Assembly: GCF_046105845.1 (NCBI RefSeq)
Contig: NZ_CP151004.1
DNA: 64,000 nucleotides
Reading direction: 5' to 3' (one strand)
Origin: Escherichia coli
GTDB lineage: Bacteria; Pseudomonadota; Gammaproteobacteria; Enterobacterales; Enterobacteriaceae
Shown: piece after piece, positions 30,768 through 39,326 of the stretch
Layout of the letters: each line of letters begins with the position of its first letter
Position numbering within the stretch: position 1 is the first letter of the stretch
Position numbers and translations under genes: made by a program
The notes under the pieces: model-generated
Database searches by the model: none
What the model was told of the DNA's origin: nothing
What the model saw: only the letters and a program-made list of their open reading frames with translations

Positions 30768-31655
30768 TTAAGATTCAGGTGTAAATTGCCAACGAGTTTC
30801 GATGACCAGCGGCTTATCTGGTGTCACAAATTCCGGCGTTAGATTTATTGCGTTAGGTGCCTGAGTCAGCGGGTTAATACAGGTGGCATCGGGCTGTTTA
30901 TCAAATACCACCAGACTGTTTGCAGAAGAGGTCATGGTCATCGCGAGTTTACCAGGCCACAGTAACTTAACCTTCACCCCGTCATAAAAACCAAAACAGT
31001 CATCCCAGGGACCGACTTGAGGAGAGATACGATTTCCAGTTGGCAGTTCATCACTACCCGCTTCTTCTTGCCAGTCCGCATCAAAAAGCACCTGCAACGA
31101 TTCTGTATTTTGCGGAGTCAGCTTTTTCGCAAACCACGGATGCCAGCCTGCGGAGGCCGGGAATGTATCGGCATATGAATGGACTTCCAGTTGCAAAACC
31201 AGCGCATCGTTCTCCAGCAAAAAAGTCTGAATCACTTCCCCTTGCCAGGGCCACGGTGAAGCCAGGGGCATACGTAAAGTCAGGGAATCTACTGTTTTGT
31301 CGATGATTTCCCACGTTGAGTAACAAGCCATACCATGCAACGCATGTGGTGGTTTATTGGCGGGTAAAGAATAACATTGCCCACCAGCATTCAGCGTCGC
31401 ATTCCCCAGTCGCCCTGCCCACGGCACCATTGGGAAACAGCCATACTGAAAAGCTCTGCGCTGCGGCTGCCATTGGCGTAATACTTCAGAACCAAATGCC
31501 TTTAACGAGGTTATCCTGGCACCATCATGCGGATAAATCTGCAGGTGAATATTGCCTTTTTCCAGCGTCACTAACTCTCCTACAGGCCCAGGCCATGGCG
31601 CGTCAAACGCCTGTTGTAGCGCCAGGTAATGCTCGTTTTTTCGTTCAGTTTTCAT
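30768..31655 (-). CDS. aldose 1-epimerase family protein (YihR-like mutarotase)
   Basis: ORF-track 30768..31712; start ambiguous, ATG at 31655 has aggga SD and avoids overlap with upstream gene. Confidence 0.7.
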   Translation of the reverse strand: MKTERKNEHYLALQQAFDAPWPGPVGELVTLEKGNIHLQIYPHDGARITSLKAFGSEVLRQWQPQRRAFQYGCFPMVPWAGRLGNATLNAGGQCYSLPANKPPHALHGMACYSTWEIIDKTVDSLTLRMPLASPWPWQGEVIQTFLLENDALVLQLEVHSYADTFPASAGWHPWFAKKLTPQNTESLQVLFDADWQEEAGSDELPTGNRISPQVGPWDDCFGFYDGVKVKLLWPGKLAMTMTSSANSLVVFDKQPDATCINPLTQAPNAINLTPEFVTPDKPLVIETRWQFTPES

Positions 31656-32994
31656 GAGATTGTTCCCTGATGTAGCAGTAAGAAGCGGTTTCTTGTTCAT
31701 CGGTCGGCTCAATCAGCCAGACGCAAACAAAGGAAAGAACTGAGACAGCAAATAAAAACAGAGCGACATACCACGGTTTTCCACCCCCTAGCGCCAGCAA
31801 ACTTGAGGCGATAAGGGGGCTTAGTCCGCCAAGAATCGCGGAAAATTGATAAGCAAAAGAAAGGCCGGTATATCGTACTTTGGTACCGAACATGCGGGTG
31901 AAAAGTGTTGGCTGCACGGCAAACATCATCGTCGGACCTAAGTTGTAGCCGAGGATCATACTGCACCAGATGATGAGCGTACTTTTGCTATCCAATAATA
32001 AGAAGAAAGGAAACGCGAACAGGACACAAAATCCTGCTCCCGACAAATACAGACTTTTTTGACCTATACGATCTGATAACCATCCAACCAATGGACAACT
32101 GAAAATACCGATCGCCGAGGCAATCAACATACCCGTCAGGGGAATATCTCGCGACAATGCTAATTGGCTGGAAATATAGACAATACCAAAGGCGTTAATA
32201 ATATTAGAGGAGACACTTTCCGCCAGCCTCGCACCCAGTGCCAATAAAATATTTCGTGGATGTTTTTTGAATAATTCAATCAACGGAGGAACGGACTTTT
32301 CTTTATTATTCGTCGTTTTTTGCTTTTGAAAATCCAGCGTTTCTTCGGTATGCAGGCGGATAAACAGCCCAACGATCAACATCACCGCAGAAAGCCAAAA
32401 CGGAATGCGCCATCCCCAGGAGAGAAACTGCTCCGAAGTAAGAAAATGGTTACAGAGAGCAAAAATACCGGTTGCCAGCATAATACCCACAGACGCAGCC
32501 GTTTGCGGGAGTGAACCTAAAAATCCGCGTCGGGATTCGGGCGCTGATTCTATGGTCATCAATGCCGCTCCGCCGTACTCGCCACCAAGACCAAAGCCCT
32601 GAATTAAACGTAGCACCATTAATATGAGCGGTGCCCAGATCCCAATTTCCTGATACGTCGGAATAAAACCAATCAAAAATGTGGAGCAACCGACAATAGC
32701 CAGCGTCCAGATAAGCGTTATTTTTCGCCCGATTTTATCGCCAAAATGACCAAAGACGATGCCACCTAAAGGACGAGTCAGAAAACCGACACCAAAGGTC
32801 GCAAAGGAAGCTATAAGACCTATAAAAGGATCGCTGTCTGGATAAAACAGCGGTGCAAATACCAGTCCTGCTGCCGTGCCAAAAATAAAGAAGTCATACC
32901 ATTCCATTAACGCGCCTGCGAAACTGCCCATAACGACACGTCTCATGGCTTTACCGGAAAGCCCTTCACGCGGTGCGGGTAACTTTTCAGACAT
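31645..32994 (-). CDS. MFS transporter (metabolite:H+ symporter-like)
   Basis: 449-aa ORF, 12 predicted TM segments by eye, MFS motif FGHFGDKIGRK. Confidence 0.8.
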   Translation of the reverse strand: MSEKLPAPREGLSGKAMRRVVMGSFAGALMEWYDFFIFGTAAGLVFAPLFYPDSDPFIGLIASFATFGVGFLTRPLGGIVFGHFGDKIGRKITLIWTLAIVGCSTFLIGFIPTYQEIGIWAPLILMVLRLIQGFGLGGEYGGAALMTIESAPESRRGFLGSLPQTAASVGIMLATGIFALCNHFLTSEQFLSWGWRIPFWLSAVMLIVGLFIRLHTEETLDFQKQKTTNNKEKSVPPLIELFKKHPRNILLALGARLAESVSSNIINAFGIVYISSQLALSRDIPLTGMLIASAIGIFSCPLVGWLSDRIGQKSLYLSGAGFCVLFAFPFFLLLDSKSTLIIWCSMILGYNLGPTMMFAVQPTLFTRMFGTKVRYTGLSFAYQFSAILGGLSPLIASSLLALGGGKPWYVALFLFAVSVLSFVCVWLIEPTDEQETASYCYIREQSHEN

Positions 32995-33048
32995 AATTTT
33001 CCTCTCCTGGTAGGCGAGAAATCTGGGATACGAACCACTAAACGTGGG

Positions 33049-33083
33049 CAGTTTGAATTAATGCGCATCGGCTTAAACCGATG
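33049..33083. repeat. perfect 14-bp-arm inverted repeat between the two MFS genes
   Basis: ttaatgcgcatcgg cttaaa ccgatgcgcattaa. Confidence 0.7.
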
Positions 33084-33092
33084 CGCATTAAA

Positions 33093-37429: not shown

Positions 37430-37601
37430 GAATACTCTCCTGTCTGACATTGACAAAATAATGACAATTGAAAATTCGTTTTCGTCTGTTTTTGAGCATA
37501 TTTGTAATTTATGTTCAAAAACACGACACGCATCACTAATTTGATCATTTGTGTCATTTAAATTGACCAAAGACGACAAAATTAAACAGGACAAGACAAA
37601 T
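37430..37601. promoter_or_regulatory. divergent promoter/operator region between reductase and kinase genes
   Basis: AT-rich, repeated tgacaa / tgtcat half-sites; candidate DeoR-type operators. Confidence 0.4.
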
Positions 37602-38498
37602 ATGACCAGAATTGCATGCGTGGGTATCACAGTTCAGGACAGGATTTATTCTTTGCCCACTCTGCCGGAGGGCGGCGGGAAGTATCAGGCAAATCATTAT
37701 CTTGAGATTGGTGGCGGCCCGGCAGCAACAGCCGCTGTTGCAATCGCAAAGCTTGGCGTGGAGGTTGATTTCATCGGTCGCGTCGGCGATGACAGTTGTG
37801 GAAATACCTTACTTGCAGAACTTGAGGGTTGGGGCGTCAATACCGCATTTTGCCGCCGATATCCTAACGCCCGTTCGTCGCAATCAGCGATCCTCGTTGA
37901 TCAGCATGGCGAACGGATTATCGTTAATTATCCAAGTCCTGATCTCGGTACTGATGCCGAATGGTTAGAAGCGATCGATTTCTCTCGTTATGATCTGATT
38001 CTGGCCGATGTTCGCTGGCATAGCGGTACTGAAAAAGCATTCTCGCTAGCGCGCCTTGCGGGTGTGACAACGCTTTTAGACGCCGATATGACACCGCAGG
38101 ATATTTCTCCACTTGTCGCGCTTGCCGATCACGCCGTGTTCTCAACACCAGGGCTGAAACGCATGACTGGCCTGCAGTCACCTGAAGAAGGTTTGTTCCA
38201 GGCAACGACACAAACAGCAGGTAAAGTGTATGTTACGCTGGGTTCTGAAGGATCGTTGTGGATTGAAGATGGTCATTTGTGTCAACAGGAGGCATTTTCT
38301 GTCAATGTGGTTGATACCACTGGAGCAGGCGATGTTTTTCACGGCGCACTCGCGGTAGCGTTGGCAGAAAAAATGCCAACAAAAGAGGCTATTCGTTTTG
38401 CCAGTGCGGTTGCCGCGATGAAATGTACCCAGCCTGGCGGTCGGGCCGGCATTCCTAATCGTGAGCAAACCGAATCATTTTTGTCACTTTATGCGTAA
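37602..38498 (+). CDS. PfkB-family sugar kinase, YihV-like
   Basis: ORF-track 37551..38498; ATG at 37602 gives 298 aa [17 protein letters not shown]-terminal [12 protein letters not shown] motif. Confidence 0.78.
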
Positions 38499-38537
38499 AA
38501 TGGTAAACATCTACCGAGGAGGGGCAAGGGAGTATTC

Positions 38538-39326
38538 ATGAGTATCATCGAAGTGACAGGTAATCCACGCCATGACCAACTCGTTCATCTAATCGCAGAA
38601 CGCGGTTATATGAATATTGAAGAACTGGCACAACTGCTGGATGTTTCAACGCAAACCGTGCGCCGGGATATCCGAAAACTCAGTGAGCAGGGCTTGATCA
38701 CCCGTCATCATGGAGGGGCCGGGCGCGTCTCCAGCGTCATGAATACCGCTTTTGAGCAACGGGAACTATCGCTCACCGCCGAGAAACGGGCGATCGCTGA
38801 GGCAGTCGCCGATTACCTTCCCGAACGCTGTACCGTCTTTATCACCATCGGTACAACCGTAGAAGCCGTTGCCAGGGCATTACTCAACCGGCGTGATTTA
38901 CGCATTATCACTAACAGCCTACGTGTGGCACAGATTCTTTATAAGAATCAGGATATTGAAGTGATGGTGCCGGGAGGCACTTTACGCGCTCATAACGGCG
39001 GGATTATCGGCCCAGGAGCCGTGGATTTTATTGAAGGCTTCCGCGCAGATTATTTAATCACCAGTATAGGTGCCATTGAACATGACGGCACCCTACTGGA
39101 ATTTGATGTAAATGAAGCGTTAGTCGCGAGAACGATGATTAAACATGCGCGGAATACATTGTTAGTGGCCGATCATACGAAGTTTGCCGCGTCTGCTGCC
39201 GTTTCAATTGGCAATGCACGGAATGTCAGGGCTTTTTTTACTGATGCCCCGCCTCCCAATTCTTTCTGCCAGTTGTTAAGTGAAGAGAATGTTGAACTGG
39301 TGGTTGCCGAGCAAGAAGTATCCTGA
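38538..39326 (+). CDS. DeoR-family transcriptional regulator, YihW/CsqR-like
   Basis: 262-aa ORF; N-terminal HTH, C-terminal sugar-phosphate-binding DeoR domain. Confidence 0.78.
   Translation: MSIIEVTGNPRHDQLVHLIAERGYMNIEELAQLLDVSTQTVRRDIRKLSEQGLITRHHGGAGRVSSVMNTAFEQRELSLTAEKRAIAEAVADYLPERCTVFITIGTTVEAVARALLNRRDLRIITNSLRVAQILYKNQDIEVMVPGGTLRAHNGGIIGPGAVDFIEGFRADYLITSIGAIEHDGTLLEFDVNEALVARTMIKHARNTLLVADHTKFAASAAVSIGNARNVRAFFTDAPPPNSFCQLLSEENVELVVAEQEVS

Follow-up and report, generated by a model that had tools for sequence, protein, structure and literature searches.

Is the group of genes that stands between yihX and yihN in some strains of Escherichia coli a remnant of the sulfoquinovose cassette that strain K-12 carries at this place, or a catabolic system in its own right? 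The block considered here occupies positions 30695-39334 of a 64,000-nucleotide stretch of E. coli contig NZ_CP151004.1 (hereafter the window), where it forms a variant allele of the yih locus (8.64 kb, compared with 11.9 kb in K-12) flanked by yihX (30028-30627) and yihN (39386-40651). We regard it as highly probable that this block is a functional module distinct from that of K-12. A fuller interpretation, to which we give about an even chance, is that the block constitutes a complete and selectively maintained catabolic module of eight genes, an alternative yih allele rather than a truncated one, that supports a pathway resembling sulfoglycolysis of the sulfo-Embden-Meyerhof-Parnas type (sulfo-EMP) with an oxidative entry step.

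Comparison with K-12 by blastn places the breakpoints at 30694/30695 and 39334/39335, with flank identities of 97.1% up to 30694 and 98.5% from 39335. Within the block, only the portion corresponding to yihT-U-V-W aligns (65-67% nucleotide identity), and it does so in the opposite orientation relative to the flanks, which agrees with the inversion proposed in an earlier description of this locus (hereafter the original prediction). At the same place, K-12 carries ompL-yihO-P-Q-R-S-T-U on one strand and yihV-csqR on the other. A tblastn search of the whole 64-kb window detected no homologue of OmpL, YihO, YihP, YihQ or YihS, which upholds the absence of yihQ, yihS and ompL that had been claimed. 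Genes were called from a listing of open reading frames (ORFs) and from the Prokaryotic Genome Annotation Pipeline (PGAP) annotation of a strain that is 99.7% identical. The content, order and strands of the eight genes are as first described, and all eight ORFs are intact. The starts at 31655 and 37429 are backed by orthologue alignments and by PGAP; the long ORFs at 30768-31712 and 36551-37630 begin farther upstream. BLASTP comparisons reveal that four of the encoded proteins are 66-73% identical to K-12 proteins and that the other four have no K-12 counterpart, confirming that the cluster is a variant that differs from K-12. It is neither annotated by PGAP nor published as a characterised pathway.

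The four proteins with diverged K-12 counterparts are a YihT-type class I aldolase homologous to sulfofructose-1-phosphate aldolase (35639-36526, minus strand, 295 aa, 66% identical to K-12 YihT), a YihU-type sulfolactaldehyde reductase (36551-37429, minus strand, 292 aa, 73% to K-12 YihU), a YihV-type PfkB kinase homologous to sulfofructose kinase (37602-38498, plus strand, 298 aa, 67% to YihV in an ungapped alignment) and a DeoR-family regulator homologous to YihW/CsqR (38538-39326, plus strand, 262 aa, 72% to K-12 CsqR). All four are far more diverged from K-12 than are ordinary E. coli alleles, as represented by the flanks at 97-98.5% identity. Published structures have established contacts to the sulfonate group by K27, N109 and R138 of YihV, by K193, R253 and A26 of YihT, and by N174, S178 and the R123 backbone of YihU (PMC8006165). 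The block kinase retains the K27/N109/R138 sulfonate triad along with D13, S95 and the catalytic D244, the aldolase retains A26, K193 (Schiff base), S226, S227 and R253, and the reductase retains R123, K171, N174 and S178. Among the related modules described below, the sulfonate-pocket residues are also kept in the Vibrio kinase and reductase, and the aldolase pocket residues in the Rhodopseudomonas palustris and Streptomyces copies. Furthermore, the block reductase scores 578 bits against NCBIfam NF012005 ('sulfolactaldehyde 3-reductase', curated cut-off 348), and the best PDB matches of the aldolase are sulfofructosephosphate aldolases (402-412 bits), the next family scoring ~50 bits. This aldolase is closer to the aldolases of the related modules (68-73%, with R. 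palustris at 73%) than to K-12 YihT.

The signature enzyme of the module is a Zn-dependent medium-chain dehydrogenase of the polyol dehydrogenase type (34596-35606, minus strand, 336 aa) with Pfam ADH_N and ADH_zinc_N domains. It reaches no NCBIfam equivalog cut-off, the best score being to the YdjJ-type model PRK10083 (165 bits versus 376), and with all equivalog scores far below cut-off it lies outside the characterised isofunctional families (YdjJ, IolM, Tdh, IdnD, GatD and others). Among solved structures in the PDB, the closest are RspB, ketose reductase, threonine dehydrogenase and sorbitol dehydrogenase. Columns that are invariant in 16 orthologues include C42, H64, E65 and E149, which we read as catalytic zinc ligands, and C94, C97, C100 and C108, which we read as a structural zinc site. 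Also invariant are G173, G175 and G178, and the enzyme has the GxGxxG motif of the NAD fold. In the same alignment E197, which follows the second Rossmann strand, is nearly invariant; an acidic residue at the end of this strand points to a preference for NAD+ over NADP+. A segment of the substrate loop reads 'RAPGFARS' in this family versus 'DGGFAEY' in relatives, and its invariant R117 hints weakly at an anionic substrate.

Orthologues of this dehydrogenase that are 55-94% identical occur in Enterobacterales, Vibrio, Alphaproteobacteria and Actinobacteria, and identity falls sharply below this range. The enzymes most closely related to it act on acyclic polyols, aldonates or threonine, in which they oxidise a secondary alcohol, and it is the sole conserved enzyme ahead of the kinase in the module. 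We predict that it carries out an NAD+-dependent oxidation that supplies the kinase with a 2-ketose resembling sulfofructose. Two other roles were considered and set aside. An aldose-1-dehydrogenase, as in a sulfo-Entner-Doudoroff-like pathway, would be expected with partners that are missing here (there is no lactonase, dehydratase or aldolase of the 2-keto-3,6-dideoxy-6-sulfogluconate type), and both the kinase and the aldolase belong to the sulfo-EMP type. Action on 2,3-dihydroxypropanesulfonate (DHPS) after the reductase step is unlikely because minimal modules keep the dehydrogenase and have no reductase.

The dehydrogenase is found with the same partners in distant bacteria. In all 20 sampled loci outside E. 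coli that encode a dehydrogenase relative of at least 42% identity, its gene adjoins those for a sulfofructose phosphate (SFP)-type aldolase and for a major facilitator superfamily (MFS) transporter, here called MFS A, and a PfkB kinase gene is adjacent in every sampled locus whose contig extends that far. These loci derive from R. palustris BisB18, Streptomyces marincola, Vibrio rhodolitus, Leminorella, Jejubacter, Citrobacter (three loci), Budvicia, Tenebrionibacter, Pleomorphomonas, Prauserella (two), Rhodovastum, metagenome-assembled genomes of Sutterella and of Propionibacteriaceae, two metagenomic contigs, and a Streptomyces relative whose dehydrogenase is 43% identical (L093, JACHNG010000001.1). 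A profile scan of contigs with the dehydrogenase alignment yielded, among the matches listed, mostly paralogues of ~30% identity, the informative loci being L009-L017. A dehydrogenase relative at 36% identity resides in an unrelated gene context, which places the family boundary near 42%. No YihS or YihQ homologue was found in the 20 related loci (for YihS, within ~10 kb around the dehydrogenase gene). These findings support the original proposal of a variant pathway in which a dehydrogenase replaces the isomerase step, possibly acting on a sulfo- or deoxy-sugar derivative or a sugar alcohol: the dehydrogenase is the one 'upper' enzyme that the module retains in the various phyla, where neither isomerase nor glycosidase accompanies it. 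The gene order in R. palustris BisB18 is DeoR regulator, then kinase, aldolase, dehydrogenase, a second transporter (MFS B), reductase, MFS A and epimerase. Between the E. coli module and those of R. palustris, Streptomyces and Vibrio, identities are 56-70% for the dehydrogenase, 62-66% for MFS A and 65-70% for MFS B. The kinase, reductase and regulator are YihV/U/W-like in Gammaproteobacteria only.

A comparison of synteny, as had been suggested for this cluster, reveals that Citrobacter carries these eight genes too, in the same chromosomal setting. All three Citrobacter loci (L009, L010 and L013) have fabY-dtd-yihY-yihX on one side of the module and yihN-yihM-yihL-typA on the other. The Citrobacter module is collinear with the window at ~79% nucleotide identity, and the whole neighbourhood from fabY to typA is ~79-83% identical. 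This synteny indicates that the arrangement is old at this locus and is no recent accident. For seven of the genes, the ratio of nonsynonymous to synonymous substitution rates (dN/dS) between the window and Citrobacter is 0.015-0.094, the lowest value being that of the dehydrogenase (0.015), and these ratios are rough given that dS is near saturation. For the regulator, dS is saturated and the proportions of nonsynonymous and synonymous differences (pN and pS) are 0.050 and 0.767. Over all eight genes, pN is 0.035-0.16 and pS is 0.65-0.77.

Exchanges of individual enzymes within the module bear on the nature of its intermediates. In the otherwise identical modules of Vibrio (L005, 9109-9990), Leminorella (L007, 9081-9944) and Budvicia (L011, 9018-9881), a class II (SqiA-type) aldolase replaces the class I enzyme. 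The best PDB matches of the Vibrio protein are HpSqiA and YaSqiA (8Q58 and 8Q57; 365 and 352 bits), with AgaY at 246 bits, and according to our reading of the HpSqiA/YaSqiA alignment it keeps Q51, H83 and A257. HpSqiA and YaSqiA have been verified by experiment as class II SFP aldolases (Sharma et al. 2023, PMC10665668). The Leminorella and Budvicia aldolases are 60% identical to the Vibrio class II enzyme. A more distant class II aldolase (34-38% identical to that of Vibrio) is present in Jejubacter and Tenebrionibacter, where the kinase is 47% identical to YihV. The use of two unrelated aldolase folds, each from its SFP-specific branch, is the strongest indirect evidence for an intermediate resembling sulfofructose phosphate.

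The lower part of the pathway is also subject to exchange. The modules of Jejubacter and of the 43% identical Streptomyces relative have an aldehyde dehydrogenase in place of the reductase and have no MFS B, a swap that mirrors the known reductase/dehydrogenase alternative for sulfolactaldehyde (PMC10665668). In both Jejubacter (L008, 12571-15329) and this Streptomyces relative (L093, 1658-10486), the aldehyde dehydrogenase is joined by an enolase-superfamily (MR_MLE) protein. The Jejubacter aldehyde dehydrogenase has generic PDB matches, with many subfamilies at 235-265 bits. The Streptomyces L093 module additionally encodes an exporter of the TauE/SafE family, which is typical of organosulfonate pathways. 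We speculate that modules of the L093/Jejubacter type oxidise sulfolactaldehyde to sulfolactate, from which the enolase-superfamily enzyme would eliminate sulfite to leave pyruvate while TauE exports the sulfite; such a scheme would amount to complete desulfonation. Together with the conserved sulfonate pockets, the TauE-bearing sister module favours a sulfonated substrate over a plain polyol.

The remaining three genes encode the two transporters and an epimerase-family protein. MFS A (31645-32994, minus strand, 449 aa) is of the metabolite:H+ symporter type and scores 407 bits against TIGR00883 (cut-off 443) and 410 bits against the shikimate transporter model (cut-off 538). It is 57-66% identical to the product of the partner gene in the compared dehydrogenase modules, minimal ones included, and is predicted to import an anionic substrate. 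MFS B (33093-34526, minus strand, 477 aa) is of the Sugar_tr/MFS_1 type, with 65-70% identity across phyla. It is present in every sampled module that has a beta-hydroxyacid-type reductase (nine modules hold both), and both are absent from the Jejubacter, Prauserella and TauE-bearing Streptomyces modules. From this co-occurrence, MFS B is predicted to export the reduced C3 product DHPS. Neither transporter has a BLASTP match to the GPH-type carriers YihO or YihP, consistent with their earlier assignment to a different family.

The aldose-1-epimerase-family protein (30768-31655, minus strand, 295 aa; 'aldose 1-epimerase' in PGAP) is encoded by a gene that overlaps the stop of the upstream MFS A gene by 11 nt. 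Its original description as a YihR-like mutarotase is correct with regard to the superfamily; as a YihR orthologue it is not sustained, with 26% identity over 164 of 295 residues and 32 bits against NCBIfam PRK15172 (cut-off 251). The module epimerases of R. palustris and Vibrio are closer, at 50-51% identity. In this family the columns of H107, H172 and D218 are invariant. The column of the YihR 'VEP' Glu, which from GalM we take to be the catalytic base of mutarotases, is occupied by Asn in the E. coli, Citrobacter, Vibrio and Sutterella proteins, and those of Leminorella, R. palustris and Rhodovastum have Glu there. The E. coli protein may differ from conventional mutarotases, and its presumed role is the interconversion of anomers of either the imported sugar or the ketose product.

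We hypothesize that these eight genes function together as follows. An anionic sulfonated C6 compound would enter the cell via MFS A. The dehydrogenase would then use NAD+ to oxidise the secondary alcohol beside the terminal CH2OH, yielding 6-deoxy-6-sulfofructose or a close stereoisomer, and its simplest substrate would be a 6-deoxy-6-sulfohexitol such as reduced sulfoquinovose. The YihV-type kinase would form the 1-phosphate, and the YihT-type aldolase would cleave this to dihydroxyacetone phosphate (DHAP) and sulfolactaldehyde. The YihU-type reductase would convert the latter to DHPS, for export by MFS B, and because this step would consume the NADH from the entry step, the pathway would be redox-neutral. 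The epimerase-family protein would accelerate anomer interconversion of a ring-forming intermediate. Lastly, the DeoR regulator would repress both divergent operons from their shared intergenic region until bound by a sulfosugar effector other than sulfoquinovose.

The choice of entry reaction follows from the requirement of the kinase and aldolase for a 1-hydroxy-2-keto sugar, for which the simplest chemistry is oxidation of a 6-deoxy-6-sulfohexitol at C2 to sulfofructose. This reaction would formally resemble the formation of fructuronate by L-gulonate 5-dehydrogenase. Judged from homology and gene context, the module probably converts a sulfonated sugar to DHAP and sulfolactaldehyde/DHPS. 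That the dehydrogenase makes the ketose from a precursor at the alditol level is a more tentative suggestion, which we hold with rather less than even confidence. The identity of the substrate, the dehydrogenase reaction, the directions of the two transporters and the role of the epimerase-family protein are what we infer from the evidence above.

The arrangement of the genes is compatible with coordinated expression from two divergent operons. On the minus strand, successive genes are separated by 24, 32, 69 and 98 bp and then overlap by 11 bp, a spacing compatible with one transcript that begins with the reductase gene and ends with the epimerase gene. Between the two MFS genes, the gap of 98 bp includes a perfect palindrome (33058-33091; TTAATGCGCATCGG CTTAAA CCGATGCGCATTAA, with a 14-bp stem and a 6-nt loop). 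This candidate intra-operon hairpin or partial terminator may set the relative levels of the upstream and downstream genes. The reductase-led and kinase-regulator operons are divided by a divergent region of 172 bp (37430-37601), in which an inverted repeat (37487-37500 and 37510-37523; 14-nt arms, 93% complementary) resides in a core common to the K-12 yihU/yihV intergenic region. We consider this repeat a candidate YihW operator. Electrophoretic mobility shift assays have shown that YihW of strain Nissle 1917 binds the yihU/yihV divergent region, and cross-binding of the two YihW proteins is likewise reported (PMC12608037); the shared core with its inverted repeat is consistent with this cross-binding. 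A promoter consensus scan yielded fewer sites than shuffled sequence and none in the divergent region, and no Rfam family matched within 30000-40000.

The block allele is common in E. coli. The stretch at 30768-39326 (8.56 kb) is present at 95-99.7% identity in 1325 of 5426 complete genomes (~24%) and the K-12-type cassette in 3881, both counted at a coverage of at least 80%, and the two alleles together account for ~96% of these genomes. A plasmid search gave no match for the block, and there is thus no evidence of plasmid transfer. Kaznadzey et al. (2025) have described two kinds of cassette, 'long' and 'short (yihTUVW)', that occupy a single locus in E. coli and Shigella (PMC12608037). The short cassette is reversed, enriched among pathogens, widespread and interspersed among phylogroups, and is carried by Nissle 1917 (PMC12608037). 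It appears to be the same allele as the block, given its locus, its orientation and the matching figure of 72% for YihW. Its collinearity with Citrobacter suggests that the short arrangement may be the older one in the Escherichia/Citrobacter lineage, with the long cassette of K-12 as the alternative allele.

In the same study, yihTUVW of Nissle 1917 was not induced on sulfoquinovose, and Nissle YihW, 72% identical to that of K-12, bound DNA more weakly and was released more poorly by sulfoquinovose, although its complexes with DNA do come apart with this sugar in vitro (PMC12608037). Growth of Nissle 1917 on sulfoquinovose was about that of K-12, and was slow and accompanied by a starvation-type transcriptome (PMC12608037). 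The authors term the short cassette truncated and lacking yihR, treat it as probably inactive, and do not discuss the dehydrogenase, the two MFS transporters or the epimerase-family gene (PMC12608037). These four extra genes are absent from the differentially expressed genes in the supplement, a result that is uninformative on basal expression. No dehydrogenase-containing yih variant is described in the 2018 and 2024 yih/CsqR papers by the same authors' group, the 2023 class II aldolase paper or a 2026 review. Our literature searches found no report of DHPS formation by carriers of the block allele, nothing that links sulfoquinovose or sulfofructose with sorbitol dehydrogenase, and nothing on a zinc-dependent enzyme in a new sulfoglycolysis pathway. 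The polymorphism itself is already published. Three points appear to be undescribed in the searchable literature, namely the presence of four extra genes, the fact that the eight genes are conserved as a unit across phyla, and what this implies, an entry into a sulfo-EMP-type pathway that is oxidative and needs no isomerase.

How well do other interpretations account for these observations? The published reading is, in essence, that the block is a decaying, truncated sulfo-EMP remnant (yihTUVW) that lies beside unrelated genes and lacks a coherent function. The genes for the first steps (YihQ, YihR and YihS) and for transport (YihO, YihP and OmpL) are indeed missing, and the weaker regulator binding and the lack of a transcriptional response to sulfoquinovose in Nissle 1917 (PMC12608037) might be viewed as signs of decay. 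However, the shared genes are 27-34% diverged from K-12 at the protein level, so that the block is no deletion derivative, and its eight ORFs are all intact, with strong purifying selection acting on them. In addition, the supposedly unrelated neighbours accompany the kinase and aldolase genes in distant phyla with their order preserved, and the arrangement is syntenic in Citrobacter. We consider a remnant very improbable on these grounds. It is also conceivable, though quite unlikely, that the substrate is not sulfonated and is instead a hexonate- or hexuronate-type acid or a neutral deoxy-sugar alcohol. For example, an acid could be converted to a fructuronate-like ketose and phosphorylated, with subsequent cleavage to DHAP and tartronate semialdehyde and reduction of the latter by the beta-hydroxyacid-type reductase. 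Some sources label relatives of the dehydrogenase 'L-gulonate 5-dehydrogenase', MFS A is similar to carriers of carboxylates, the shikimate transporter among them, the reductase of R. palustris scores alike against 2-hydroxy-3-oxopropionate (tartronate-semialdehyde) reductase (138 bits) and sulfolactaldehyde reductase (130 bits), and the R. palustris and Streptomyces kinases have no aligned sulfonate triad. Yet the E. coli reductase scores above the cut-off for sulfolactaldehyde reductase, and every published sulfonate-contact residue is kept in the three E. coli enzymes. The replacement class II aldolases are of the SFP aldolase type, being neither AgaY nor fructose-bisphosphate aldolase, a TauE exporter is encoded in a sister module, and a second transporter that tracks the reductase fits the export of a dead-end sulfonate better than that of metabolisable glycerate.

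A serious rival to a sulfonated alditol as the substrate is sulfoquinovose itself, although we judge this somewhat unlikely. The dehydrogenase would stand in for YihS and the epimerase-family protein would be a sulfoquinovose mutarotase. Either an unlinked or bifunctional reductase would make the alditol that the dehydrogenase then converts to sulfofructose, or the dehydrogenase would act as an NAD-mediated C2-to-C1 redox isomerase. Among known sulfosugars, sulfoquinovose is by far the most abundant, and the overlap of the mutarotase-family gene with the importer gene, along with its occurrence in most modules, would be readily understood. Nissle 1917 has the allele and no YihS or YihQ elsewhere, yet its growth on sulfoquinovose is similar to that of K-12, and its YihW-DNA complexes dissociate with this sugar in vitro (PMC12608037). 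Against this stand the absence of induction on sulfoquinovose and the slow growth with a starvation-type transcriptome (PMC12608037). Moreover, no aldose reductase is conserved in or beside the sampled modules, and the epimerase gene is missing from the Jejubacter, Prauserella and two Streptomyces modules. We also know of no precedent for a Zn-dependent medium-chain dehydrogenase acting as an aldose-ketose isomerase.

Oxidation of an alditol, which we prefer, fits the failure of sulfoquinovose to induce the Nissle allele and its weaker effect on the repressor. Several points nevertheless weigh against our interpretation. An alditol has no anomers, so that a mutarotase-like gene translationally coupled to that of the importer is left unexplained, and the growth of Nissle 1917 on sulfoquinovose could mean that the module uses this sugar. 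No natural 6-deoxy-6-sulfohexitol (sulfoquinovitol or its synonyms) was found in the literature searched, and the proposed substrate would therefore itself be new. For proteins with 66-73% overall identity, the retention of ~12 pocket residues is no more than moderately informative. Finally, in Alphaproteobacteria and Actinobacteria the module's kinase and reductase are only ~28-32% identical to YihV and YihU and do not align at the sulfonate-pocket residues, so the argument for a sulfonate draws mainly on the copies from Gammaproteobacteria, on the aldolases and on the one module with TauE.

Elsewhere in the window, a 617-aa ORF (25513-27366, minus strand) adjoins fabY in a low-GC stretch (36-45%, versus ~50% nearby). 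It has no Pfam or NCBIfam match, and a CKSAKDRT (CX5R-like) motif was spotted by eye. Its DNA is present at a coverage of at least 80% in 1061 E. coli genomes, where it is labelled 'transposase | hypothetical protein', and the corresponding K-12 neighbourhood holds yiiE/yiiF instead.

It is possible, though we stop short of even confidence, that the module represents a previously unrecognised entry route into sulfoglycolysis, by way of either a natural sulfonated polyol or a new NAD-dependent enzyme that takes sulfoquinovose to sulfofructose. Gut Enterobacteriaceae break down sulfoquinovose to DHPS, which sulfite-respiring bacteria use to form H2S, and E. coli K-12 is the reference model for this process. 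In the first case, a so far unreported polyol, namely reduced sulfoquinovose or a stereoisomer of it, would be a genuine nutrient in the environment and the gut, served by a dedicated importer, dehydrogenase and regulator; in either case, the sulfosugar capability of about one in four E. coli strains, Nissle 1917 and many pathogens among them, would differ from that of K-12. The module points either to a natural organosulfonate that is new or to a new way of making sulfofructose enzymatically, and the conservation of the eight-gene unit from Streptomyces to Vibrio makes the compound oxidised by the dehydrogenase a testable question. It also alters the way in which yih genes ought to be tallied when genomes and metagenomes are screened for sulfoquinovose use.

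The proposed pathway has parallels among known systems. In the polyol route of fungi and animals, an aldose reductase and a Zn-dependent sorbitol/xylitol dehydrogenase generate a 2-ketose that a kinase then phosphorylates. The module differs in its bacterial host, in the lack of a conserved aldo-keto reductase partner, and in the sulfonated substrate that would be needed. The ydj cluster of K-12, which we take to comprise the DeoR regulator YdjF, the PfkB kinase YdjH, the class II aldolase YdjI, the Zn dehydrogenases YdjJ and YdjL and the MFS transporter YdjK, presumably follows the same logic of dehydrogenase, ketose-1-kinase and aldolase with an MFS transporter and a DeoR regulator, and presumably serves higher-carbon acid sugars with no sulfonate-specific enzymes. 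YdjI is among the relatives of the Vibrio class II aldolase in the PDB search.

The K-12 sulfo-EMP cassette ompL-yihOPQRSTUVW (Denger 2014; structures in Sharma 2021, PMC8006165) shares with the block its locus, its homologous kinase, aldolase, reductase and regulator, and a divergent yihU/yihV promoter region with a common palindromic core. In contrast, the block has no sulfoquinovosidase (YihQ, GH31), YihS isomerase (PF07221), GPH-family YihO/YihP or OmpL; it has a Zn dehydrogenase, two unrelated MFS transporters and an epimerase-family protein, is inverted, and is uninduced by sulfoquinovose in Nissle 1917. Whereas the published short cassette consists of four genes, the four extra genes are here found to be integral and conserved parts of the module. 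The hybrid sulfo-EMP1/2 clusters (PMC10665668) resemble it in the interchange of class I and class II aldolases and in the alternation of reductase and aldehyde dehydrogenase. However, all of these clusters have an isomerase of the YihS or SqvD type, in place of which the module has a Zn-dependent dehydrogenase.

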